From contig JBBFKX010000002.1 in the NCBI GenBank assembly GCA_037481815.1, positions 15,300 to 79,299 on the forward strand: DNA of 64,000 nt, read 5' to 3'. Positions 1-18,091 of this stretch are shown in pieces. The notes beneath the pieces were generated by a model. It was given only the letters and a program-made list of their open reading frames with translations, was not told the origin of the DNA and did no database searches. Position 1 is the stretch's first letter, and each line of letters begins with the position of its first letter. Source of the DNA: a candidate division WOR-3 bacterium. GTDB lineage: Bacteria > Hydrothermota > 32-111. The position numbers and the translations under genes were made by a program.

Positions 1-293
1 GTGCTTTCAATGTTCAATCTGTTAAAATGACATATGTTCCTTTCATCTATTATACACTCGGACTGATTCCAATGGGAATAATACAGGTTTTTGCAAAAGG
101 TTTTTATTCACTTTTAAACACAAAAACACCTTTATATGTCTCAGGTGTTTCGATGGTTTTGAACATACTTTTGAACATAATTCTTCTGCCAAAATTTAAC
201 CTTGCAGGTATCGCTTTTGCCACTTCACTTTCATACTGGTTCCATGCAACCTATCTTTATTTTAAACTGAAAAAAAATCTGGAAAGAATATGA
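1..293 (+). CDS. C-terminal fragment of a polytopic membrane protein, possibly MurJ/MviN-like or Wzx-like flippase (5' end outside window)
   Basis: Reading frame is open from the window edge (no stop upstream of the ATG at 27); translation is hydrophobic with TM-like segments; placed directly upstream of acpS. Family assignment is from composition only. Confidence 0.35.
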   Translation, partial: AFNVQSVKMTYVPFIYYTLGLIPMGIIQVFAKGFYSLLNTKTPLYVSGVSMVLNILLNIILLPKFNLAGIAFATSLSYWFHATYLYFKLKKNLERI

Positions 294-664
294 AGATATC
301 AAATGGGATAGATATCATAGAAGTTAAAAGGATAAAAGATAAATTTGAAAAAAATCAAAAATTCAAAGAGAAAATTTTTACTGAAAACGAATTGAACCAA
401 GTGAAGGGGCTTGAAATAGAATATATAGTTCTTGCAGGAAAATGGGCTTCAAAAGAAGCATTTTCAAAAGCACTTGGAACAGGTATAGGAAAAGAACTTG
501 ATTGGAAAGATATGGAGATCATAAACGATATCAATGGAAAACCTGAAATAAGAATTTCTCAGAATCTTATCAAAAAATATAAAATAGATCAGATCTCTCT
601 TTCGATTTCACATATAAAAGATTATGCCATAGCATCAGTTTTTATTCTTTTCAACCAAACTTGA
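290..664 (+). CDS. acpS: holo-[acyl-carrier-protein] synthase (4'-phosphopantetheinyl transferase)
   Basis: 124 aa; N-terminal GIDIIEVKRI motif and WASKEAFSKALGTGIG core typical of AcpS; size typical. Confidence 0.8.
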   Translation: MKISNGIDIIEVKRIKDKFEKNQKFKEKIFTENELNQVKGLEIEYIVLAGKWASKEAFSKALGTGIGKELDWKDMEIINDINGKPEIRISQNLIKKYKIDQISLSISHIKDYAIASVFILFNQT

Positions 665-3217
665 AATCTTTTTCTTGATACCCTTTATTGAAAGGTTATC
701 ATCCTTTTCAACTTTTGAAATTTTTATGAGATATTCTTTATACATTTTAATCAAGTATTTAAAATTTTCATTTGAAATCAATTTATAAATAGTAATAAAT
801 TCCTCATAATTATTCAAATCACCTAAAAGTTGCATATATCTTAAAGTTGAAGAAAATTCTGATAGATAATTCGATATCGATTGACGAACAACTCTATCCT
901 CTTCCTTATCAATCTTTTTCACAAAAAGTTCAACAAGATCAAACTTATGTTTTCTAAAACATTCAAGAATCTCAACTTTTAATCTGTAACTTCCTTTATC
1001 GTAATGCTCCAGTAAAAATGTTAAATCAACTGTTGTATCAAGATTTCCAATAGCAAAAACTGAAAGTTCTTTGATTTTTTGATCTGGATAAGAAAGGTGT
1101 TCTTTCAATGTCTGGAATGATCTATTGTATTTCGCCTGTGAAAGTATATAGATTATATTTTTTTTCGTATTTTTATCTTCGCTCCTGTTCAACTTTTCGA
1201 TCAATTTGTCTTTTAAAATATCTGAACAGTTTTTGAACAGATAGTTCATCGCTTCAAGTTCAAGTCCATCATCGGTTGAGATTTTTTTATCAAGAACATA
1301 TTTTACAGATTCATTTTCCCGTTTTAAAAGTATTTTTCTTGCTTTTTCAACTTTATAAAAGTTATCCCTTACAGCCCACTCTGATGAGATTTCAAATATT
1401 TTTTCTATCGGTAAATCTTCTGAAACAAAAAATGTATCCGGTTCTTTCTTTTCTTCAACAAATCCAACATCAACACCAAATCCATAATATTTGTTTATCC
1501 AACTGATTGAATCTTTGTTTGATTGCTTTGAATAAAAATCTTTCCCTTCACAGTCAATAAAAAGTCCAATACCTGAAAATCCTCTCGATTCGTTCACATC
1601 TCCATTTGAAAGTTTTTCACTTGAAAAATAGGAGTCGTTCCCTTTTTTATCAAGAAATATTCCAACAGAGTTGTTTAAGCCAACACCCTGACCACCTGAA
1701 ACGGTATAGTTGTCATCACCCTTCTGATCGATCAAAACCCCATAAGCAAAATCATGTCCTTCTCCTTGCGATGGACCATACCTTGAAAAGAACATATCAT
1801 CACCTGAATAATCGAACAAACCACCCACAGAAAGATGAATCCCGGATCCCTGTGCATACTGTGCTGAAGAGTAATAATCGTTTCCAGAAAAATCGAAAAG
1901 AAGTCCAACACTGTGCCAGTAACTTCCTCCCTGCCCAAAAACAGAGGAGAAATAGTTATCGTTCCCTTTATAATCAACAAGAATTCCGACTCCACCACAT
2001 GTTCTTGGTCTTAAACCAAATCCAAAGCCCTGACTCATCGAAAGATAATCGTTTTCAAGTAAAGGTGCATGCTTGAAAAATGTTCCTGATATATAATGGT
2101 CGTCACCTGAAGAATCAACAAGTATACCAGTACCTTTAACAAAACCAAATCCCTGTGAAAATGCAGAAGAATAATATATATCGTTTCCAGATTTATCGAT
2201 CAACTCTCCCCTTCCAAAGTAGCCCGCACCCTGCGTGAAAAATCCTCCTGAATAAAAATCGTTTCCACCACCATCATAAAGTTGTGAAAATCCTATAAAA
2301 GCTGCCCCCTGTGAAAAGTTGTATGTTTTATAAAAATCGTTACCATTAAGATCGAACAAAAAATTGACACCGTTTATTGCACCACAGGAAACCTTAAAAC
2401 TGTCTGTTGAAATATACTGGTCATCTCCATCAAAATCTATAATAAACCTGATTCTTTTTGTATAAGGATAAACAACCCCACAACTGTTAAAATATTTATC
2501 ATCACCACCAAGATCAATTATAAAATCATATTCATCATAATATGAGTTTGAATAAAAATCTCCAATAAACAATCTCCCATTTGAAAGAAAAGTATCAACA
2601 GGATAGAGTTGTCCATTAACAAAAAGTTCGATTATTCTTTTTTTAAAATTTTCAGTTAAAATTTTTACCTTTTCAAAGTCAGAATTTACCAGATAAGAAT
2701 AATTTACAAGGGAATCAACCTTTAAAGAATTAGTATCAATATTTATACCAAGAGATTGCTCTATCCTTCCTTTATATAGATAAGACAATGATTCTTCAAA
2801 AAAAAGTAATGGAATAATCTGTAAAATATCTCGACTTTTTTCAACATTTATTTTAATTTTTTCTCTCAAAATCTGATTGACATCTCCGGTATATTTTTCA
2901 ACAAGTTCAAAATGGTTTGTGATTTTTTCATAATCATTTTTTTCATAAATTTTATCGTGCAAATTTACAATCGAATCCAAATAAAACTCTCTTTTCTTAA
3001 CAAGTAGCAATGGATTGTTTAAAAGTGTATCTGCAAATGGCATTTTAAAGGAATCGTTAACAGAAAAATCTTTTTTAAAATTGAAATCTTTTTCCTCTAT
3101 ACCAAAATTTCTACCTTTTTCAATTATCATCTTGTAATCCTCTTCTGGAACTTTTGCAAAAATTGTTGAAAAACAAAAAAGTAAAAATAAAAACTTTTTT
3201 AAACTTCCAAAAAACAT
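635..3217 (-). CDS. secreted repeat protein: signal peptide, about 12 tandem ~23-aa Gly/Asp/Tyr-rich repeats (predicted beta-solenoid), C-terminal HEAT-like repeats
   Basis: N-terminal hydrophobic signal-like segment (MFFGSLKKFLFLLFCFSTIFA); repeated units such as LVDYKGNDNYFSSVFGQGGSYWHSVGLLFDFSGNDYY; C-terminal 300 aa alpha-helical with repeating hydrophobic periodicity. No confident family recalled. Confidence 0.6.
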   Translation of the reverse strand: MFFGSLKKFLFLLFCFSTIFAKVPEEDYKMIIEKGRNFGIEEKDFNFKKDFSVNDSFKMPFADTLLNNPLLLVKKREFYLDSIVNLHDKIYEKNDYEKITNHFELVEKYTGDVNQILREKIKINVEKSRDILQIIPLLFFEESLSYLYKGRIEQSLGINIDTNSLKVDSLVNYSYLVNSDFEKVKILTENFKKRIIELFVNGQLYPVDTFLSNGRLFIGDFYSNSYYDEYDFIIDLGGDDKYFNSCGVVYPYTKRIRFIIDFDGDDQYISTDSFKVSCGAINGVNFLFDLNGNDFYKTYNFSQGAAFIGFSQLYDGGGNDFYSGGFFTQGAGYFGRGELIDKSGNDIYYSSAFSQGFGFVKGTGILVDSSGDDHYISGTFFKHAPLLENDYLSMSQGFGFGLRPRTCGGVGILVDYKGNDNYFSSVFGQGGSYWHSVGLLFDFSGNDYYSSAQYAQGSGIHLSVGGLFDYSGDDMFFSRYGPSQGEGHDFAYGVLIDQKGDDNYTVSGGQGVGLNNSVGIFLDKKGNDSYFSSEKLSNGDVNESRGFSGIGLFIDCEGKDFYSKQSNKDSISWINKYYGFGVDVGFVEEKKEPDTFFVSEDLPIEKIFEISSEWAVRDNFYKVEKARKILLKRENESVKYVLDKKISTDDGLELEAMNYLFKNCSDILKDKLIEKLNRSEDKNTKKNIIYILSQAKYNRSFQTLKEHLSYPDQKIKELSVFAIGNLDTTVDLTFLLEHYDKGSYRLKVEILECFRKHKFDLVELFVKKIDKEEDRVVRQSISNYLSEFSSTLRYMQLLGDLNNYEEFITIYKLISNENFKYLIKMYKEYLIKISKVEKDDNLSIKGIKKKISSLVEKNKN

Positions 3218-3837
3218 AAAATTTTTCCTTTTTGATATTTTATCATTGCATTTCTTTTTATTATTCTATTACTAACACCTAAAGATGGGTGGTTGTTGAA
3301 CAAATCAGTTTTTTGATATTCATATTCAAATCCTTCAGATGTTATCATTTCACTCTTTTTAGTTATTGAGAAAAAAGAAACCCTTTTACCTTTCATATTG
3401 AAAAATGTATACTCGGTTTTCGGTTTTATTAAAAATATATCCTCATCTTTTGTCAAAATGTGAATGTTAAACTTTTCAAATTTTGAAATTAAAAGTAGAG
3501 ATGCAAAAAAATGGTCCTTTCTTGAACCAGAAACACCCGTTGCATAAATATTTTTAAAACCTTTTTCAACAGCATAGTTTATTGCAAGTTCAAGATCTAT
3601 AAAATCTTTTTTTACAGGGAACTTTTCTTTTTTTATAAAAGATGGGATTTTTTGTTCATCTATTGAATCAAAATCACCTATAACAATTTTAGGAAGCAAC
3701 CCTTTGGGAAGTTTATCATATCCTCCATCAGCAGCTACGATATATTTAAAACTTTTAATTATTTTTTCAGAACATAAATCTTCCCCGTTAGCAACTATCA
3801 AAACTTCTTTTTCTGTAAACATTATTTTAATATACAA
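3199..3837 (-). CDS. thiamine pyrophosphokinase
   Basis: 212 aa; AADGG and GDFDS motifs characteristic of the TPK catalytic domain. Confidence 0.7.
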   Translation of the reverse strand: MYIKIMFTEKEVLIVANGEDLCSEKIIKSFKYIVAADGGYDKLPKGLLPKIVIGDFDSIDEQKIPSFIKKEKFPVKKDFIDLELAINYAVEKGFKNIYATGVSGSRKDHFFASLLLISKFEKFNIHILTKDEDIFLIKPKTEYTFFNMKGKRVSFFSITKKSEMITSEGFEYEYQKTDLFNNHPSLGVSNRIIKRNAMIKYQKGKILCFLEV

Positions 3838-3860
3838 CTCTATAAAATTTAAGTCAACAT

Positions 3861-3890
3861 AAAAAAAGTGGGATGATAATCATCCCACTT
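3861..3890 (-). terminator. Rho-independent terminator-like hairpin downstream of the 3918..6194 gene
   Basis: Perfect 9-bp stem GTGGGATGA / TCATCCCAC (3868-3876 and 3880-3888) with a 3-nt loop, followed on the minus strand by a U-run (plus-strand A7 at 3861-3867); lies immediately 3' of the minus-strand stop. Confidence 0.5.
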
Positions 3891-3917
3891 GATTAAAAAA
3901 TGATTAAAAATTTACGA

Positions 3918-6194
3918 TTACTTTATAATGAACAAAAATTTTCCTTTTACAACATTTTTCGGTGTTTCAAGTTTAAAGAAATAGATATCAGAGGAAAACT
4001 TTTCTTTTTTCAAATCAACGATTATCTCCCTATTTACACCATTAAAATCAAGATTCTTAACAACTCTCCCATTTTTATCATAAATTTTTAAGTTTATTTT
4101 TCCTTTTACAGATTCAGAAAAAGTTGCATAGAATATGTTTGAAGTTATAGTTGAAACTTTTGTTTTTAGATCGATCTTCTCTTCTTTTGAAATTTCTTCA
4201 ATATTTGTCAACTCACTCGCTTTGAAAAGGTTATGTAAAAGTTCAACATAATCACCTTGTAATATACCATTCATAACAGACCAATCAGAAGGAAATATGT
4301 TGAGTCCTATCACTCCACCATAAGGTTGAGGAAGATCTCTATAGCCCAAAAGCCACTCACCATCATCCCACCTTGCAACAGTATCTGCACCAGGATTTAA
4401 AACAATATAATCTCTAAACATGTCGCTTAAATTTGTAACATTATCCATAAATGGGTGACCCACAACAAAAGTTCCAAGGTTTGCTGTAGTAAAATGGTTA
4501 TCACCATTTAAACTCTTAAATGGATTTATTAAAGTATCCATTATTCCACCTTCAAGATTGTTCCCATTATAATACCATGAAAAACCTCCGGTAATAACCC
4601 ATTTGCCTGAGTTTACAAATGAAAGAAGTGTATCTCCCATTGCTATTTTATCCAAATAACTATTGTCGGGATATGTGAAAACCATATCATAAAATGATAG
4701 ATCGTTACTGTTTGGTAAGTAAGTTGCTGCATTCATATAATCAATATTTCCGAAATCTGGGAACTCTTCTATCTGTTTTATTATGTTTGGTGAATTATCA
4801 TCAGCAACAGCCCAGAGTATATTTGGAGAATTGCCATATATCCAATACATATCAATATTTTCCAATATTTCTGACAATACATTATAATACGCATATTCAA
4901 TAGTCATTGTGGTTGCTATTATTCCTCCCTTATTTTGTCTTGAAATTAAAAGTAGAGTATCTATTGAATCAGCAGATAACAAAACAACATAAGAATTTTC
5001 TGGTAAATTTATCAGCCCCCCATGAGAAACAGAATTCCAATTAACAAGTGTCGTTGAATCTTCCTTAGAAAACTCATTTAAAAGAGGATGCCAACCATTT
5101 AATATCGCTACTGAATCAGTAGATCTTGAAGCCATCGTAAATCCAAAAGGCATTTCAACACCACTCCAATCATAAGAACTATAGGTTGCTCCATTTATCT
5201 GTAATATACCACCGTTGTTAACCCAATCTTCATATTTTGTTCTGTTGTTTGAAATCGCTTCATAAAAACTTCTCTCCTGTTGTGAAGCAAATATACATTT
5301 TTGAAATCTTGAAAGGTCAACAAGACCAATCTCGCTTTCATTAAAATGATGGAAAGCTATATTATACTTATAAAAAACATCTTCATTTGAGGTTGACCCC
5401 CATGGAGCATGGTTTTCAAAATACGCAATCCTTGTTTTGGCAAATCCAAGATCAAATCTGTAAGCACTGGTTCCATAATATGTGCTAATCCAGAGATCAT
5501 TCCCATCAAAAGCAACACCTTCTCCATAATTTGACATATCCGGATTAGGAAAACTATCAAGAATAATTGGTGGATCAACAGAAATATCAAGTTGTTTTAC
5601 ATACTCTGTAATATTATCAAGAACCCATAGAGTTGAATCTTTTCCACAATAAGCCATATCCATTGGCCAACCGATAACAGATGAAATGTGTATTGTATCA
5701 ATAATGTGAATCAAAGTATCTGTTACAAAAATATAACCAGCAGTGGATGCTATATAAAGATTTCGCCCGTCAGATGTAACACCTCTTGTGTTTACTCCTC
5801 CAGGAGAAATGAAAGTAGTAACATGGGTTCCATTCTTTTCAATTTTGTGAATACTTCCATTCGTCCAATCTGAAATATATAATCTTTCTCCCACTATTCC
5901 TATTCCGAATATGTATCCTGTAGTTGCCATCGTAAAGGAATCTATTGTTCCATAAATATAATCTATTCTATAAACTTTCGCAGGATTGGAATAGGTGTTC
6001 GCTAAATAAAAATATCTTCCATCAAACTCAAGTCCATTTGAATTTGTTCTATTATAATTCAATGTATCTATTACAGTTTCATTGATGCTAATACTTTTTA
6101 TATTAACATTTTCACTGTTAGCACCTGTTGGATCAAATGGGAAAAGATAAATGAAAAAAGATAAAAGTAAAAAGAAAAGTACTAATTTTTTCAC
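3918..6194 (-). CDS. secreted protein with type IX secretion system C-terminal sorting domain (Por_Secre_tail-like)
   Basis: N-terminal signal peptide (MKKLVLFFLLLSFFIYLFPF); last ~70 aa (LKIYDKNGRVVKNL...DIYFFKLETPKNVVKGKFLFIIK) fit the T9SS CTD pattern; body unassigned. Confidence 0.65.
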   Translation of the reverse strand: MKKLVLFFLLLSFFIYLFPFDPTGANSENVNIKSISINETVIDTLNYNRTNSNGLEFDGRYFYLANTYSNPAKVYRIDYIYGTIDSFTMATTGYIFGIGIVGERLYISDWTNGSIHKIEKNGTHVTTFISPGGVNTRGVTSDGRNLYIASTAGYIFVTDTLIHIIDTIHISSVIGWPMDMAYCGKDSTLWVLDNITEYVKQLDISVDPPIILDSFPNPDMSNYGEGVAFDGNDLWISTYYGTSAYRFDLGFAKTRIAYFENHAPWGSTSNEDVFYKYNIAFHHFNESEIGLVDLSRFQKCIFASQQERSFYEAISNNRTKYEDWVNNGGILQINGATYSSYDWSGVEMPFGFTMASRSTDSVAILNGWHPLLNEFSKEDSTTLVNWNSVSHGGLINLPENSYVVLLSADSIDTLLLISRQNKGGIIATTMTIEYAYYNVLSEILENIDMYWIYGNSPNILWAVADDNSPNIIKQIEEFPDFGNIDYMNAATYLPNSNDLSFYDMVFTYPDNSYLDKIAMGDTLLSFVNSGKWVITGGFSWYYNGNNLEGGIMDTLINPFKSLNGDNHFTTANLGTFVVGHPFMDNVTNLSDMFRDYIVLNPGADTVARWDDGEWLLGYRDLPQPYGGVIGLNIFPSDWSVMNGILQGDYVELLHNLFKASELTNIEEISKEEKIDLKTKVSTITSNIFYATFSESVKGKINLKIYDKNGRVVKNLDFNGVNREIIVDLKKEKFSSDIYFFKLETPKNVVKGKFLFIIK

Positions 6195-10810: not shown

Positions 10811-11936
10811 AGAACACCTCCTTTAATTTTTTTCTATAGGTTTCAACTGAATCCAATCTATCATATTTAAAATCAGGATAAATTTTCTTCCAATCATTTA
10901 CAACTTTTTCGATTAAAGATTTCAAAGCCATATGATTGTTGTTTTCAAATATGTACAATTTTTTATAATCTTTCAACAACTCTTTAGCAGGTGTCAAATT
11001 TGAAGCTATTATAATTTTACCACATTTTGCCGCCTCAAAGATCACTCTACCAGATGTCTCTGGCCAGATAGAAGGGAATATGAGAACATCAAAACTGGCT
11101 AAAACCTGATCGATTTTCTCACTTTCGAATTTACCTTTAACTGATATCCTTTTATCTTTAACTTTATTTTTAACATCACCCCATAAAAGTAGTTTTATAT
11201 TTCCATCTTTTATAAGTTTAAAAGATTTTAAAACCGTATGTAACCCTTTATGGTAAGCTGAATGACCGATAAAAGCAAAAACAGGGTATTCTTCCTTTTC
11301 CCTTTTTTTACATAAAATATCCTTTTGAAAATTTTTTAAAACAACACTTTTATCATTTAAATTCAAAAATCTGTTCGTTATTTCAAAAGATTTTTTTGAA
11401 GGGTAAATAATTTTATCGATGTATAAAAAAATTTCGTCAAAAAATTTTTTTCGATTTTTATACCAGTTCAACCTTTTCATAAACAATGCTAAAAATGGGA
11501 ATAGAAGATCTCTTATCTGTCTTGTGATTGGAAGAAAAGGATATTTATCCATATAGCAATAGATGCAGTTTCTTCCATAAGGTCCGGAGCATAACATTTT
11601 TCTGTTGTTTATAAGAACCACTCTTTCACAGATAGAGTAATAATCATGAGAGACAAAACCAATTTTTATATTTTTCTTTTTGACTACATTTAAAATTTTT
11701 GGGGTAATGAATTTCAATGAATGAAGCAACAGTAAATCAAAATCTTCATTTCCAATCTTATTGAAAAAATCTTCATCATTTAAAAAATTTTTATCTTTTT
11801 TAACTATCAAAATTCTTCTATCATTCACTCCTGTAAATGATGTTAAAATTTTTTCATCATCAAGAGCTAATTCTTTTACAAACAGCGATGAACCACCATC
11901 ATCTTTGAACTCATCTATATAGTGTAAAATTTTCAT
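10794..11936 (-). CDS. glycosyltransferase, GT-B fold (family 4-like)
   Basis: 380 aa; C-terminal [21 protein letters not shown] resembles the GT4 E-x7-E region. Confidence 0.65.
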
Positions 11937-13135
11937 AACAAATACTCCAGAATTTTTTCAAACTGTATTACGAACCTATTTTTGTCAAAAGGTCCATCTT
12001 TATATCCTTCAACTGCTTTACTACCTTTTAATGAAGTTAATCTTGCATTATAGGATAAATTTTCTTTTAGGTTTTTATCAAGGTATAACTGCTTGAGATA
12101 ATTGTAAGTCAAAATATAATCCTGAAAAGGAACAAGGAAGCCATTGAATCCATTTTTCACAATATAGCATGACCCCCAGCAGTATGAGTTAATTGTAGGG
12201 ATACCATAGGAGTGTGCTTCAACACTCACGATACCAAACGATTCGGCTATCGAAGGTAAAAGGAAAACATCAGTGTTTAAAAAGAGTTCCTCTTTCTTTT
12301 TTTCTGATACATGGGGATAGTAAATTATAAAATCTTCATTTAAACTTCTAAAATATTTTTTATCGATCTTCCCTACGATTGTGAATCTTATATTTTTAAA
12401 TTCAGAATATAACATTTTTGTTGCTTTCAAACTCGTTTCTATCCCTTTTTCATAATTCTGCCTTCCAATAGAGAGAATATTGAAAATACCATTTCCACCT
12501 TTTGAGGTTTTTTCAGGAATGTTAATGTAAGAGTTCAATTGAAAAACTTTTTTTCCAAATTTTTCCAAATAATCTCTCTCATAGGAGTTCAGACAGATCA
12601 AAATATCAGAAAGTTCATATAAACTTTTATAATAAGGATGAAAAAACTCATATGAAAACCTTTCGGTATGAGGTAATGTCGAATGGATTAAAGGTATAAA
12701 AACTGTTTTTCTACCATATTTTTTAGAATAAAAAAGTGCAGGGTAAACTATCGATGAAAAAGGAAGAAAACCTGTTATGATGATATCATACTTTTTTACA
12801 TTTTTTTTAAGATTTAATACTAAGGATGGGGATAAAATTTTAAAATTCAAAGTGTAATATTTTAAAAGGCCCATCTCTTCAAAATATTCCATTATCCTGT
12901 TCTTATATGGGAAATTTATAAGAAAAAACCTTTTTATCAAAGAACCATAAAAATTTTCCTCGGTTTCTAACATTTTATCATTTTTTTCATAAGAATCATC
13001 TGATACCTTTAAAGTATAAACATCAACATCAAAACCTTTTTCTTTAAGGAAATCAAAAATTTGTTTTGAATACACTTCTGAACCTGAAACAACAGGGAAA
13101 AACCTGTTAAAAACTAGTAAAAATTTTTTAGCCAT
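11933..13135 (-). CDS. glycosyltransferase, GT-B fold (family 4-like)
   Basis: 400 aa; ESFGIVSVEAHSYGIPTI motif typical of GT4. Confidence 0.7.
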   Translation of the reverse strand: MAKKFLLVFNRFFPVVSGSEVYSKQIFDFLKEKGFDVDVYTLKVSDDSYEKNDKMLETEENFYGSLIKRFFLINFPYKNRIMEYFEEMGLLKYYTLNFKILSPSLVLNLKKNVKKYDIIITGFLPFSSIVYPALFYSKKYGRKTVFIPLIHSTLPHTERFSYEFFHPYYKSLYELSDILICLNSYERDYLEKFGKKVFQLNSYINIPEKTSKGGNGIFNILSIGRQNYEKGIETSLKATKMLYSEFKNIRFTIVGKIDKKYFRSLNEDFIIYYPHVSEKKKEELFLNTDVFLLPSIAESFGIVSVEAHSYGIPTINSYCWGSCYIVKNGFNGFLVPFQDYILTYNYLKQLYLDKNLKENLSYNARLTSLKGSKAVEGYKDGPFDKNRFVIQFEKILEYLL

Positions 13136-14462
13136 TCTTTTTGCCTATGTATGTAATTTTTATTTTTTCCTTTGTTTCAATCTTTAAATGTAATTTCCCT
13201 TTTACGACTTTGAAATAAAAAGGAGATTTTTTTGATAAGATTTCTGTGTCATTGTGTTTTATTAAAATCTCTTTATCTTCAGGATAATAAACGATCAAAT
13301 ACTCACAATCCTCATCACTCTCCAAAAAAATCTCACCTTCTTTTGACACGAATCTTCCAACAGGAAAATTTTTATCAAGAAAAGAAAAGCCCTTTCCGAT
13401 GTAAAGATCATCTATTCCAAAAGTGATAGAATTTTTTAAATTTGGTATTTCGTTAAAACTTGAAACCACTTTTACCTTTTCGTAAAACACCTCTTCGATT
13501 GGGAAAGGATTAAAACTCTTATCGAGGAAATCTTCAACCCTTCTTGCATTTAGCAAAAATTTTCTTTTAAATCTGATAAAAAGAATTTTTGGAAACTCTA
13601 TCAACAATGAAAATAATATTTTCAAATGTAGAAGATTTTTTTTTAAAAATCTTGTTTTAAGAAAAAACATTTTTGTTAACAAAAGATTTTTAAAAGATAA
13701 AAATTTCAATAGAAAATAGTACTGATTTTTTAAAATTAAAAATTCTTTTCTCTTTGAAAAATTTTTAAAACTTCCAGAGTACTCATGATAACATACCGCA
13801 TCCCTGACAAACCCAATTTTGAAATCTGTTTCAGTTAAAATTCTCATCGAAAGATCAGCATCTTCATAAAAGGACGAATAAGAAAAATCAAAAAGTCCTG
13901 TTTTATTTAAAACTTCCTTTTTTATTCCAAAACAACCACCTGTTAAAAGGATGTTTGAATCTCTGGAAAATTCTACATCATCGTTTAAACCATAATCTCG
14001 ATTTTTAGCAAAACCTGCAAGATTCAATACCAGTCCTGTCGAGTTTATTATATCCCTTTTACCATTAAATTTTATAAGGGGAATCGCTGCTCCGATATCC
14101 TCATTTAAAAAGATCCTGTCAAAGTTTTCCAAAAAATCTTTATCCAAAATGATATCGTTGTTCATCACAAGAAGTATATCAGCACCAGAATAGAAGAAAT
14201 AATTTAATCCAAAATTGTGTGAAACATAACCAAAATTTTTGTTGACTCTTGTAACTTTAACTGCAGGAAACAATCTATGAACATCTTCAACTGAAGAATC
14301 GTTTGAACAGTTATCTATAAGATGAACTATATAATTTTTATAAGTTTGCTTAAAAATCGAATCGATGGATTCAAAGAAAACATCTTTCAATAATGAACTT
14401 CCATTAAAATTGACTATCTGAACTATGTAAAGATTTTTCTTCATAAAAATTCTTTGATGCAT
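13128..14462 (-). CDS. glycosyltransferase family 2-like protein with C-terminal extension
   Basis: N-terminal GT-A-like region (IVQIVNFNGSSLL, DNCSNDSS, DED-like motifs); 444 aa. Confidence 0.6.
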   Translation of the reverse strand: MHQRIFMKKNLYIVQIVNFNGSSLLKDVFFESIDSIFKQTYKNYIVHLIDNCSNDSSVEDVHRLFPAVKVTRVNKNFGYVSHNFGLNYFFYSGADILLVMNNDIILDKDFLENFDRIFLNEDIGAAIPLIKFNGKRDIINSTGLVLNLAGFAKNRDYGLNDDVEFSRDSNILLTGGCFGIKKEVLNKTGLFDFSYSSFYEDADLSMRILTETDFKIGFVRDAVCYHEYSGSFKNFSKRKEFLILKNQYYFLLKFLSFKNLLLTKMFFLKTRFLKKNLLHLKILFSLLIEFPKILFIRFKRKFLLNARRVEDFLDKSFNPFPIEEVFYEKVKVVSSFNEIPNLKNSITFGIDDLYIGKGFSFLDKNFPVGRFVSKEGEIFLESDEDCEYLIVYYPEDKEILIKHNDTEILSKKSPFYFKVVKGKLHLKIETKEKIKITYIGKKNG

Positions 14463-15286
14463 CTTTTTAAAGCATCATCAAATGGTGGCATTTCTTTAAT
14501 TCCAAGGTCATTTAATCTTATACTTTTCAAAGCACAATTTTTCGGAATCTTTTCAATCAGTTCATCACTTCTGATATTTATTTTTACATTTTTTTTCAGA
14601 TAATCTCTTATCATTTTAGCAACTTCAATATAAGAAACCTTGCCCAAGTTTACAAGATGTAAAATCCCGGAAACGGTTCTGTCTTTCTTCAGTAATTCTT
14701 CCATCTTTAAAGATAAATCCAAGGCGTATGTTGGAGAAGTGAGTATGTTATATAAAGAGACATCTTTTCCATCGATTATCTTTTTTATCGTAAATCCTAT
14801 TACATTATGACCTGGGGTAAAGTTCCCATATCCAAAAATTTCATCAGTTCTTATTATCAGAGCATCAGGATTGTTTTCCAAAATCAATATTTCACCTTTA
14901 AATTTAGAAAATCCGTAAACGGTTTTCGGTTCAGGAGAATCTGATTCAATATATTCTTCCCCTTTTTCACCATTAAAAACAAATCCAGTAGAAAGGTGAA
15001 CAAACTTTATACCAAGTTCTTTTGAAATCTTTGCAAGTTCGCTCGGTGCATATGCATTTATTTTCAGTGATTCTTCAGGATTTTTTTCACAATAATAAAT
15101 GTTTGTGATTCCTGCACAGTTAATACATATATCAATTTTATTTTCCTTAACAAACAGATAAAATTTTTCATAATTCACTATATTCAAATCCCCATGTGAA
15201 ACTGCAAAGACCTTAAATTCTCTTTTAAAATTTTCTGCAAGATATTTCCCAAGAAGACCTCCACTTCCCAAAATTAAAACATTCAT
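14441..15286 (-). CDS. NAD(P)-dependent sugar reductase/epimerase, RmlD-like (dTDP-4-dehydrorhamnose reductase family)
   Basis: GSGGLLG Rossmann motif, YGFSK catalytic Y-x3-K, 281 aa. Confidence 0.6.
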   Translation of the reverse strand: MNVLILGSGGLLGKYLAENFKREFKVFAVSHGDLNIVNYEKFYLFVKENKIDICINCAGITNIYYCEKNPEESLKINAYAPSELAKISKELGIKFVHLSTGFVFNGEKGEEYIESDSPEPKTVYGFSKFKGEILILENNPDALIIRTDEIFGYGNFTPGHNVIGFTIKKIIDGKDVSLYNILTSPTYALDLSLKMEELLKKDRTVSGILHLVNLGKVSYIEVAKMIRDYLKKNVKINIRSDELIEKIPKNCALKSIRLNDLGIKEMPPFDDALKRCIKEFL

Positions 15287-15341
15287 ATCCCCCTCCTGAC
15301 AGCGAAATAACCATCAAATTTTTTATAATAATTAGAAAAAT

Positions 15342-16469
15342 TCATAATTTCCATTTAACAGGTATTTTTACAAAACCCAAATGTGTTTTTTTTGCTCCAT
15401 CAACCTCAAATGAAGAAGCAAAATCTATATGATCGTAAGGAAATCTGTTATGAACATCATAGAATGCAATGGAAATATAATATTTACCTGGATTCAGGTT
15501 TACTGGATTGAAAGAAAAACTTATTTCACCATAATCTTTGAGATCAACATATCTCCCTTCATAATCATAGATGTTTGGACCAGATATCACATTTGAAAAT
15601 TGATCGGTTATTGAAAACCCAAAGATTCCCTTATCAACTTTTCCATTTTTTTTATACCTGACCTTAAAAGATATTTCCTTTCGTTCGAAAGAAGAATATC
15701 TATTGTTTTCGCATAATATTTCAACTATCTCTATCTCTCTGCTTCCTCTTCTTATTATATTTTTTGATGGATCATTCTCTTTTTTCGAAAGATAATTTGA
15801 AACAACATCTTCCGGATTTCCAATATCAACGATCTCACCATTTTCAAGAAGTGCTACCCTGTCCGAAAATCTTGAGATCAGTCCCATATCATGTGAAACA
15901 AAAAGTATTGTAACTCCTTCATTTTTTAGATTCTCAACTTTTTCAAGACATTTCCTCTGAAAATGGATATCTCCAACAGCAAGTACTTCATCTATAATGA
16001 GTATCTCTGGATTTGAAAATATGGCAACAGAAAATCCCAATCTGATATACATCCCCGTTGAATACTCTTTTACCTTCATATCAACATAATTTCCCAATTC
16101 TGAAAACTCTAGAATCTTATCGTATATCGAGTTTATATATTTTTTTGAAAATCCCATAATCGTTCCATAAAGAAAGATGTTCTCCTTACCAGATAACTCA
16201 GGGTTGAATCCAATTCCAAGACCAAGGAAGGGAGAAACTTTACCATAAACCCTTACTGTACCTTTATCAGGTTTTAATATTTTTGAAACTATCGATAATA
16301 GAGTTGTTTTCCCGGAACCATTGGCACCTATTAAAGAAAAAAACTCGTTTTTCGAAACATCAAAGGAAATATTTTTTAATGCCTCAATTTTTTTCTTTTT
16401 AAAAAAACCAACATTGGGATAGTATGTTAAAGCAACATCTTTTAAAGATATAACAATGTTACTTTTCAT
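15342..16469 (-). CDS. polysaccharide ABC exporter ATP-binding protein (Wzt/TagH-like) with C-terminal extra domain
   Basis: Walker A GANGSGKTT, signature LSGKEN-like region, Walker B IIDEVLAVGD; about 130-aa C-terminal extension as in Wzt. Confidence 0.8.
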   Translation of the reverse strand: MKSNIVISLKDVALTYYPNVGFFKKKKIEALKNISFDVSKNEFFSLIGANGSGKTTLLSIVSKILKPDKGTVRVYGKVSPFLGLGIGFNPELSGKENIFLYGTIMGFSKKYINSIYDKILEFSELGNYVDMKVKEYSTGMYIRLGFSVAIFSNPEILIIDEVLAVGDIHFQRKCLEKVENLKNEGVTILFVSHDMGLISRFSDRVALLENGEIVDIGNPEDVVSNYLSKKENDPSKNIIRRGSREIEIVEILCENNRYSSFERKEISFKVRYKKNGKVDKGIFGFSITDQFSNVISGPNIYDYEGRYVDLKDYGEISFSFNPVNLNPGKYYISIAFYDVHNRFPYDHIDFASSFEVDGAKKTHLGFVKIPVKWKL

Positions 16470-17218
16470 AAACTCTTAACCATCCTATCCTCATAAATGT
16501 TGAATATAAGATATCCAATAAGTACAAAAATTATTGCGAAGAAAATGGAATTTATAGTAACTGTTACATCTGGTAGATTTGAATAAAAAAGTATATTCTG
16601 GATCCCTATAACATAAACAGCAACAGGGTTTATAAGATACAGGTGAATAAAATTGTATGGCACGAGTTCAAATGGGTAAAATACTGGACATAGAAAAAAT
16701 AATGCCTGAACAAGTATCTCCCATCCTGCCTTAACATCTTTGAAAAAAACATAAATTATGGAAAGAATTGTTGATATACCAAAAAGAAAAAATGAAAATA
16801 TTATAATGTAAGGAATAAAAAACAGAGAAATAAAAGGAAAAGATTTGTTTATAACGATATAGAAAATTATGTAAATCACATATTCAAAAAAAACTATTAT
16901 AAGATTTGAAATAACAAGTGATAATGGTAAAATCAACCTTTCGATCTTAACCTTTAAAATCAATTCTCTGTTTCTGTGGAATAACTGTAAGGATTGTGTT
17001 GTTGTATTGACAAAAAATCTCCATAAAGTTGTTCCAGCAAGAATAAAAAGTGGATAATTTTTCATGTTGAATCTCATAAACCTGTTAAAAACGATATAGA
17101 TTATGATCATCAAAAAGAGAGGTTCAAAAATTATCCAGAAAAAGCCCAACAATGAATTTTTATATTTCGTTTTAAGATCTGATTTTATGAGTTCAACTAT
17201 TAGATCAAGATTTATCAT
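16466..17218 (-). CDS. ABC-2 type polysaccharide exporter permease (Wzm/TagG-like)
   Basis: 250 aa, about 6 TM helices, translationally coupled to the Wzt-like ATPase. Confidence 0.7.
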   Translation of the reverse strand: MINLDLIVELIKSDLKTKYKNSLLGFFWIIFEPLFLMIIIYIVFNRFMRFNMKNYPLFILAGTTLWRFFVNTTTQSLQLFHRNRELILKVKIERLILPLSLVISNLIIVFFEYVIYIIFYIVINKSFPFISLFFIPYIIIFSFFLFGISTILSIIYVFFKDVKAGWEILVQALFFLCPVFYPFELVPYNFIHLYLINPVAVYVIGIQNILFYSNLPDVTVTINSIFFAIIFVLIGYLIFNIYEDRMVKSL

Positions 17219-17270
17219 AAATGTATTTTAACAGAGATTGTTTATCAGTCAAGAATATAATCGGGTTGTA

Positions 17271-17299
17271 TTGACTATTTAACTATGTTATGTTATAAA
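17271..17299 (+). promoter_or_regulatory. sigma70-like promoter (TTGACT, 17-nt spacer, TATAAA) upstream of dapB
   Basis: TTGACT at 17271-17276 and TATAAA at 17294-17299 in the divergent intergenic region; the ATG of dapB is at 17306, so the leader would be very short. Confidence 0.3.
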
Positions 17300-17305
17300 T
17301 AAATT

Positions 17306-18091
17306 ATGATAAGAGTTGGAGTTAATGGTTGTGCTGGAAAGATGGGAAGCATCTTATGCTATAAGATCCTTCATGAGGATGATATTGTATTGACTGAAGC
17401 TTTTGAAAAAGCAGGTTCAGAATTTATTGGAAAGGACCTTGGAATAGTTCTTGGTATAGAAGAGTGGAAATTGAATATAAAAGAACTCTCAGTATCTGAA
17501 AAATACAAAATGGATATACTTGTAGATTTTTCAACGGAAGAGGGATTTTTAAATTCTCTTGAGTATTCTTTTACCCAAAAAATTCCTTTCATCTCCGGAA
17601 CAACCGGACTTTCAGAAGAAAGTTTAAAAAAAATGAAAAATTATTCTAAAGACATTCCAATCCTATACTCATCAAATATGTCAACTGGTATAAACTCGAT
17701 TTTAAACGCCCTGGAAGATATGAAAGATATTCTTAATGACAGGAAAAGAGATATTGAAATTATTGAGTACCATCATAACAAAAAAAAGGACTCACCAAGC
17801 GGAACAGCACTTATGATCGCAGAAAAAATATCAGAACTTACAAAAAGAGGCATCAACAAAACTGGAACAGTAAACTTTCCAAGAAACGATGAGATAAGGA
17901 TACATTCTTTAAGGCTTGGGGAAATATATGGTTATCATAAAGTGATAATCTCGGGAAACGGTGAAACAATCGAAATATCACATACAGCATTATCAAGAGA
18001 AACTTTTGCGAATGGAGTTATTCAAAGCATAAAGTTTTTATCGGACAAAAAGAATGGCTTATACTCGCTTTCAGACATCAAAAGGAGTTAA
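17306..18091 (+). CDS. dapB: 4-hydroxy-tetrahydrodipicolinate reductase
   Basis: 261 aa; N-terminal GxxGxxG-like NAD site (VGVNGCAGKMGS); position in a lysine operon. Confidence 0.8.
   Translation: MIRVGVNGCAGKMGSILCYKILHEDDIVLTEAFEKAGSEFIGKDLGIVLGIEEWKLNIKELSVSEKYKMDILVDFSTEEGFLNSLEYSFTQKIPFISGTTGLSEESLKKMKNYSKDIPILYSSNMSTGINSILNALEDMKDILNDRKRDIEIIEYHHNKKKDSPSGTALMIAEKISELTKRGINKTGTVNFPRNDEIRIHSLRLGEIYGYHKVIISGNGETIEISHTALSRETFANGVIQSIKFLSDKKNGLYSLSDIKRS

Follow-up and report, generated by a model that had tools for sequence, protein, structure and literature searches.

What kind of protein joins a long array of Asp-rich repeats to a C-terminal HEAT-like region, and what could such a protein do in the cell envelope? 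The question is raised by an open reading frame (ORF) of 860 amino acids (aa) in a genome fragment of a candidate division WOR-3 bacterium (GenBank assembly GCA_037481815.1, contig JBBFKX010000002.1, positions 15,300 to 79,299; 64,000 nucleotides), referred to here as the window. The ORF lies on the reverse strand at window positions 635 to 3217, with its ATG at 3217, exactly as given in the initial annotation of this DNA. We put the probability at roughly 60% that its product is a Sec-exported, probably periplasmic protein in which a Ca2+-rigidified β-helix presents an invariant site for a polymeric ligand and a HEAT tail serves for docking. The fold class is well known, as is the principle of the Ca2+-binding turn, and no long-standing question is solved here. 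The combination of a 27-residue coil, a Sec route, an N-terminal cap, an invariant site, and a HEAT fusion, however, defines a family that is undescribed and not covered by existing domain models, and literature searches turned up no account of it.

Repeat array, predicted fold, and proposed calcium binding

Residues 230 to 590 (~360 aa) consist of 12 tandem repeats with a period of ~27 residues (26 to 28). The initial annotation thus had the number of repeats right, and the peptides it quoted are present, but its repeat length of ~23 residues was too short. The repeat unit reads G-h-L-h-D-x-x-G-[N/D]-D-x-Y-(5-7 x)-Q-G-x-G-(4-5 x), with coils starting at aa 230, 257, 285, 310, 337, 364, 411, 438, 465, 493, 519, and 551. 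Successive G[ND]D motifs are spaced by 26, 28, 26, 26, 27, 47, 27, 27, 28, and 26 residues, with insertions extending coil 6 to 47 aa and coil 11 to 32 aa. The pattern G.D.[YF] occurs 12 times, compared to 1.1 times expected and a maximum of 6 in 5,000 shuffles of the repeat region. The in-register coil cores share a mean identity of 36%, and no DNA-level tandem repeat was detected in the gene, which indicates that the array is ancient and its coils have become individualized; the lack of a DNA-level repeat rules out a recent repeat expansion. Across the 12 coils of 41 aligned sequences, the turn nonapeptide is D (96%)-x-x-G (98%)-N/D (84%)-D (100%)-x-Y (98%)-x. Position 3 is variable, and Thr is not among its five most common residues. 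The solenoid carries a net charge of -24. Pfam searches of the query at E ≤ 10 detect nothing over the repeats, the sole match being HEAT_2, and searches of NCBIfam and of Protein Data Bank (PDB) sequences return nothing meaningful (in the PDB, noise such as bL27m and a densovirus capsid). The repeat domain is therefore without a Pfam or NCBIfam model and without a sequence relative among solved structures, in keeping with the earlier remark that it could not be placed in a known family.

The AlphaFold2 (AF2) model, built from the 41-sequence alignment (mean pLDDT, 83.9; pTM, 0.74), is composed of a signal helix, a helical domain at aa ~25 to 200, a β-solenoid at aa 205 to 583, and a 17-helix α-solenoid at aa 604 to 857. 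The expectation of a β-solenoid was thus borne out by a regular one, and no assignment to a characterized family emerged; these were the two points on which the initial annotation had made its description depend. The solenoid is very regular, with pLDDT mostly above 90 over aa 200 to 380, and has the features of a right-handed, three-sided parallel β-helix with one RTX-like turn per coil. In each coil, a β1 strand (G-h-L-h-D) is followed by a five-residue turn (x-x-G-N/D-D), a β2 strand (x-Y-x-x), and a third side that carries (S/A)-Q-G-x-G. The β-helix as a whole (aa ~205 to 590; positions 1448 to 2604, reverse strand) comprises these 12 coils and a degenerate leading coil, as the modeled strands at 207 to 211 and 214 to 218 suggest that a 13th coil may precede the array at aa ~203 to 229.

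The top structural neighbors include adhesins and autotransporter passengers (MpAFP, UpaB, HMW1, EtpA, TibA, and Vag8), and the closest solved fold is region IV of MpAFP (PDB 3p4g), with 19 to 20% identity. That region is a Ca2+-bound helix of thirteen 19- to 21-residue coils with the consensus xGTGNDxuxuGGxuxGxux and one RTX-like nonapeptide per coil (PMC3492233). The turn in our protein, D-x-x-G-[N/D]-D-x-Y-x, aligns position by position with the RTX motif G-G-x-G-x-D-x-U-x, except for the Asp at position 1. Accordingly, the relaxed expression xxxGxDxUx matches 12 times, once per 27-aa coil. The modeled turn leads into a short strand, whose aromatic residue at position 8 follows the RTX pattern. 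By analogy with MpAFP, the stacked Asp turns would bind a row of Ca2+ ions. The main argument for such a row is that a pair of carboxylates from each coil, stacked along one edge, would be unfavorable without cations.

The two helices also differ in several ways. Compared with the 19- to 21-aa coils of MpAFP, the coils described here have 27 aa and an extra Q-G-x-G side, their motif begins with Asp, and they show no Thr/Asx ice-binding array of the MpAFP type. MpAFP, an RTX-type surface adhesin of 1.5 MDa, is exported by type I secretion, whereas our protein has 860 aa and an N-terminal signal-like segment. Likewise, RTX proteins have a C-terminal type I secretion signal and no N-terminal one, where our protein ends in HEAT repeats. 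MpAFP has nothing that corresponds to the cluster of invariant His, Asp, Arg, Tyr, and Trp residues described below, to the N-terminal helical domain, or to the HEAT tail. Finally, RTX β-rolls place two motifs in each 18-aa turn, in contrast to one per 27-aa coil here.

Several observations weigh against the calcium-bound, exported β-helix proposed here. The strict expression GGxGxDxUx has no match in the protein, and neither does the HemolysinCabind model (PF00353) at E ≤ 10, so the likeness to RTX proteins is one of mechanism and fold, not of family membership. A profile of the repeat domain searched against all PDB sequences returned only noise (HPr; E = 1.5), with no match to 3p4g at E ≤ 10. 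The Asp at motif position 1 and the 27-residue coil imply that the ion geometry could differ from that of RTX proteins or that the ions could be absent; AF2 places no ions. In a sub-domain model from a shallower alignment, the third face is weak (pLDDT, 63.9). Exported proteins seldom contain HEAT repeats, and the comparison of 80 related loci, whose ORFs were clustered all against all, yielded no conserved operon partner beyond close relatives and hence no pointer to a ligand.

Probable export, conserved core, and exchangeable modules

The N-terminal 21 residues (MFFGSLKKFLFLLFCFSTIFA; positions 3155 to 3217, reverse strand) form a signal-peptide-like segment, recognized by its hydrophobicity and its conservation in homologs, as had been proposed before. 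By inspection, MFFGSLKKFLFLLFCFSTIFA|KV shows the n-h-c layout with a putative cleavage site after IFA, and its segments MFFGSLKK, FLFLLFCFSTIF, and A-K fit the pattern of a Sec (SPase I) signal, i.e., a basic n-region, a hydrophobic h-region of 10 to 15 aa, and small residues at -3 and -1. This is the most hydrophobic 11-aa window of the protein (mean Kyte-Doolittle value, 2.55), and an equivalent hydrophobic segment is found in 39 of the 41 homologs, several of which have canonical AxA sites. A hydrophobicity scan of the protein detected no second segment resembling a transmembrane helix. A lipoprotein was considered and rejected by eye, as the residues preceding C15 (L-L-F-C) are unlike a lipobox. 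Pfam and homolog searches revealed no anchoring, autotransporter, or type IX secretion system (T9SS) sorting domain, and the protein does not appear to use the T9SS. As a neighboring ORF does have such a sorting domain (see below), its absence from this family favors a periplasmic location, and we infer that the protein is Sec exported to the cell envelope, most likely to the periplasm.

The predicted signal peptide is followed by a helical domain (aa ~22 to 204; positions 2605 to 3154, reverse strand) that probably caps the β-helix. In the AF2 model, its helices span aa 25 to 37, 60 to 85, 102 to 139, and 182 to 200, and its conserved positions are K49, P69, L70, P136, G150, D161, and T162. 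A profile of this domain retrieved just two fragments of the same family from a large protein database, with no relatives outside the family, and had no match in the PDB.

The C-terminal part (aa ~601 to 860; positions 638 to 1417, reverse strand) is a HEAT/PBS-lyase-type α-solenoid of about 8 helical hairpins, and the earlier suggestion of HEAT-like repeats is upheld. In the protein itself, the Pfam HEAT_2 match at aa 670 to 744 (E = 1.9e-5) scores 25.3 bits, below the cutoff of 27.7. In the family, HEAT_2 matches 37 of the 41 homologs (best E = 3.7e-30), HEAT_PBS matches 23 of them, and the family profile matches alphaRep designs (E values down to 6e-71), the CpcE phycocyanobilin lyase (2.8e-11), and YibA (1.6e-6). 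With paired antiparallel helices in the AF2 model (17 helices over aa 604 to 857), the C terminus clearly belongs to the PBS-lyase/alphaRep type of HEAT repeats at the family level. What distinguishes it from other HEAT repeats of the PF13646/PF03130 type is its fusion to a β-helix within an apparently exported protein.

The HEAT tail is an accessory module, which some variants lack. Among the best 150 of the 4,118 family representatives (see below), a complete gene for a 1,022-aa protein (P0216) combines an N-terminal M14 carboxypeptidase with the helical domain and solenoid and has no HEAT repeats; this fusion occurs in 3 clusters, P0216 and two relatives with 52 to 53% identity, one of them from Planctomycetota. 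Two other proteins (P0251 and P0220) show a weak PDZ match ahead of the solenoid (24.3 to 24.6 bits; cutoff, 27); P0251 is without HEAT repeats, whereas P0220 stops at the end of the profile and may be truncated. In P0249, a region matching Pfam Beta_helix precedes the solenoid. The N-terminal helical domain is kept in the HEAT-less M14 and PDZ variants, and the conserved core of the family is this domain together with the solenoid. A further HEAT-less protein of 630 aa (P0166; L084, positions 1951 to 4142) proved to be an artifact of a split gene, probably due to a frameshift or an assembly error, as the HEAT part of the family profile is matched by an overlapping ORF downstream (3819 to 4142; E = 6.8e-23).

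This family is large. A word-indexed search returned more than 2,159 homologs, all named “HEAT repeat domain-containing” or hypothetical, the best of which is 92% identical and comes from a WOR-3 metagenome-assembled genome (MAG). With a hidden Markov model of the repeat domain, we found 4,118 representatives at 50% identity (E ≤ 1e-3), 2,229 of which reach E ≤ 1e-30. Almost every one of the 4,118 aligns as one stretch along the whole profile, which indicates a fixed number of coils. In the 185,579 species-representative genomes scanned, 412 stretches encode relatives. Those with a phylum name come nearly all from WOR-3, TA06, Cloacimonadota, Stahlbacteria, Edwardsbacteria, Latescibacterota, and Hydrothermae, and many others carry only the label “uncultured bacterium.” The closest stretch, from a WOR-3 MAG, is 96% identical over the solenoid and shares the local synteny. 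A homolog with 80% identity to the solenoid is encoded by a MAG labeled “Acetofilamentum sp.” (L007; DYMB01000004.1), a genus of Bacteroidota in the NCBI taxonomy; this label may be a misassignment, because the locus groups with WOR-3/TA06 loci. Almost all of the named loci belong to uncultivated candidate phyla of the FCB group, in which these proteins now bear just a HEAT-repeat or hypothetical label. The more than 4,000 clusters at 50% identity receive a concrete domain definition from which a Pfam-style model can be built. The RTX-like Ca2+ β-helix theme would be extended past type-I-secreted adhesins and toxins, to a coil geometry of 27 residues.

The invariant residue cluster and its possible function

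Besides the Asp ladder, the solenoid carries a cluster of invariant residues on its third face, in coils 6 to 11 (positions 1583 to 2011, reverse strand), delineated by conservation in 145 representatives with a median identity of 43% to our protein. The cluster consists of R403, Y433, W434, H461, H488, D489, and R545, a Gln ladder (Q396/429/456/484/510), and N516. Outside the Asp ladder, Q396, R403, Q429, Y433, Y454, H461, H488, D489, and R545 are each conserved in at least 93% of the representatives. Across the HEAT, M14, PDZ, and Beta_helix architectures, R403, Y433, W434, H461, H488, D489, and R545 are kept, in contrast to H383/P385 and E486. In the AF2 model, the short strands 432-433, 459-460, 487-488, and 513-514 stack, and judging from the coil register, Y433/W434 (coil 7), H461 (coil 8), and H488/D489 (coil 9) would be neighbors on a face that points away from the Asp turn. 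A grouping of this kind speaks in favor of a specific site for ligand binding or catalysis, as opposed to a passive rod.

These features fit a scheme in which the protein would be exported by the Sec pathway to the envelope, where the helical cap and the right-handed β-helix of 12 or 13 coils form its conserved core. Each 27-residue coil would contribute one D-x-x-G-[N/D]-D-x-Y turn, and the Asp pairs aligned along one edge would bind Ca2+, as in RTX β-rolls and region IV of MpAFP/MpIBP. Once the protein is exported, these ions would neutralize the ladder of acidic residues and hold the helix as a rigid rod. A different face would present the Arg, Tyr, Trp, His, His, Asp, Arg, and Gln-ladder residues of coils 6 to 11 as a defined site for a polymeric ligand (a peptide or protein, or a glycan), which would be bound there and possibly also cleaved or modified. 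The HEAT solenoid would act as an exchangeable protein-docking module, with PDZ or M14 carboxypeptidase domains taking its place in other lineages. This scheme names particular residues for mutation and poses Ca2+-dependent folding as a biophysical question. The binding scaffold, possibly for metals or glycans, that the initial annotation suggested is supported by the analysis.

Two other readings refine the ligand or activity and are not alternatives to the structural frame. The protein might be a new polysaccharide-active enzyme of the pectin-lyase fold (a lyase, hydrolase, or epimerase), with Ca2+ and the invariant cluster as its active site and an acidic glycan of the envelope or the environment as its substrate. 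We regard this as unlikely: E486 is not conserved in the other architectures, genes of glycan metabolism are not consistently found nearby, and no Pfam model of any β-helix enzyme family matches. Specifically, the Beta_helix, NosD, and Pectate_lyase models (PF13229, PF05048, PF12708, and others) have no match in our protein or in the 41 homologs. Structures of β-helix enzymes show 5 to 11% identity, compared to 19 to 20% for the nonenzymatic MpAFP helix, and pectin-lyase-fold helices at large (PL6, K5 lyase, tailspike depolymerases, AlgE4/AlgG, NosD, and autotransporter passengers) show 2 to 13%; a regular ladder of Asp-Gly-Asp turns does not characterize these families. A broader proposal, which we offer tentatively and consider doubtful, is that the β-helix is the catalytic domain of an unrecognized family of Ca2+-dependent envelope enzymes, with R403/Y433/W434/H461/H488/D489/R545 as the active site, possibly a His-His-Asp metal or acid-base center. 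If so, such enzymes would occur only in WOR-3, TA06, Cloacimonadota, and allied candidate phyla, their substrate would be an envelope polymer or exogenous proteins or glycans, and partners or substrates would be recruited by way of the HEAT, PDZ, and M14 modules.

A role in protein or peptide turnover, in which the β-helix would capture substrates, act like a chaperone, or serve as a module whose folding is triggered by Ca2+, in cooperation with the envelope peptidases of these protein-fermenting phyla, appears to us quite unlikely, even though it draws on both fusions and neighbors. The M14 fusion and the sub-threshold PDZ matches point that way, as do an M6 metallopeptidase (immune inhibitor A type) directly upstream of the homolog in 6 loci (L020, L030, L035, L043, L045, and L058), an M42 aminopeptidase directly downstream in 6 others (L048, L064, L066, L068, L069, and L075), and PrsW in 2 loci; the M6 and M42 genes are on the same strand as the homolog, in most loci with a gap of <20 nucleotides (nt). 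The serralysins, in which RTX β-rolls are joined to metalloproteases, make this an established pairing and provide a precedent. However, fusions are rare, each adjacency is confined to one clade, which amounts to about two events, and the M42 neighbors have no signal-peptide-like N terminus (judged by eye from one N terminus). The 137 immediate neighbors of homologs span 121 different Pfam families, so there is no universal partner, and the neighbors of our gene (thiamine diphosphokinase, holo-ACP synthase, and MurJ) are unrelated to proteolysis. The hint at peptide or protein handling is hence a lead only, because the events are few and phylogenetically clustered. A purely structural rod at the surface or in the periplasm, i.e., an adhesin-like spacer in which the Asp ladder forms metal-free, hydrogen-bonded Asx turns and there is no ligand site, would agree with the adhesins and autotransporter passengers among the top structural neighbors. 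We nevertheless consider it highly improbable: the fixed coil number, specialized coils, and invariant non-ladder residues are unlike the variable-length stalks of adhesins, the anchoring and sorting domains are missing as noted above, and 24 stacked carboxylates without counterions would be destabilizing.

Gene neighborhood

In the window, the β-helix/HEAT gene is preceded on the same strand by a gene for thiamine diphosphokinase (positions 3199 to 3837; TIGR01378, E = 3.9e-38), the end of which overlaps the start of our ORF by 19 nt (3199 to 3217). This overlap suggests cotranscription or translational coupling of the two genes. The adjacency is seen in the closest relatives only, with thiamine diphosphokinase found in 10 or 11 of the 80 loci, and the neighbors of this type as a whole (MurJ, holo-ACP synthase, and thiamine diphosphokinase) occur in 10 to 12 of the 80, again only in close relatives. 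On the other side, a holo-ACP synthase ORF (positions 290 to 664, forward strand; PF01648, E = 1e-17) is convergent with the β-helix ORF, and their 3′ ends share 30 nt (635 to 664). It is preceded by an 88-aa ORF for a MurJ fragment (positions 27 to 293, forward strand; positions 351 to 431 of 506 in TIGR01695), which was called from an internal ATG, while the true start lies outside the window, beyond its upstream edge; the ORF terminates with a stop codon of its own at 293 and overlaps the start of the holo-ACP synthase ORF by 4 nt.

Further genes nearby encode MutS2 and a 758-aa protein (positions 3918 to 6194, reverse strand) with a signal-like N terminus and a C-terminal T9SS type A sorting domain, which suggests that the organism uses a T9SS. 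The sorting domain scores 22.2 bits with TIGR04183, just under the cutoff of 23, and the same protein has a weak Glu_cyclase_2 or β-propeller-like match (E = 2.8e-4, below the cutoff). An Rfam search of both strands of the window returned nothing at the gathering score, with no match to tRNA, rRNA, or riboswitches. In a TA06/WOR-3 clade, homologs in 6 or 7 loci are followed directly, on the same strand, by tandem arrays of 2 to 13 copies of secreted paralogs of ~145 to 165 aa (L002, positions 10941 to 17606; L022, L031, L033, L040, L073, and L074), which have no Pfam match and share conserved Cys/Trp motifs. The GC content of the window is low throughout, at 25 to 36%.

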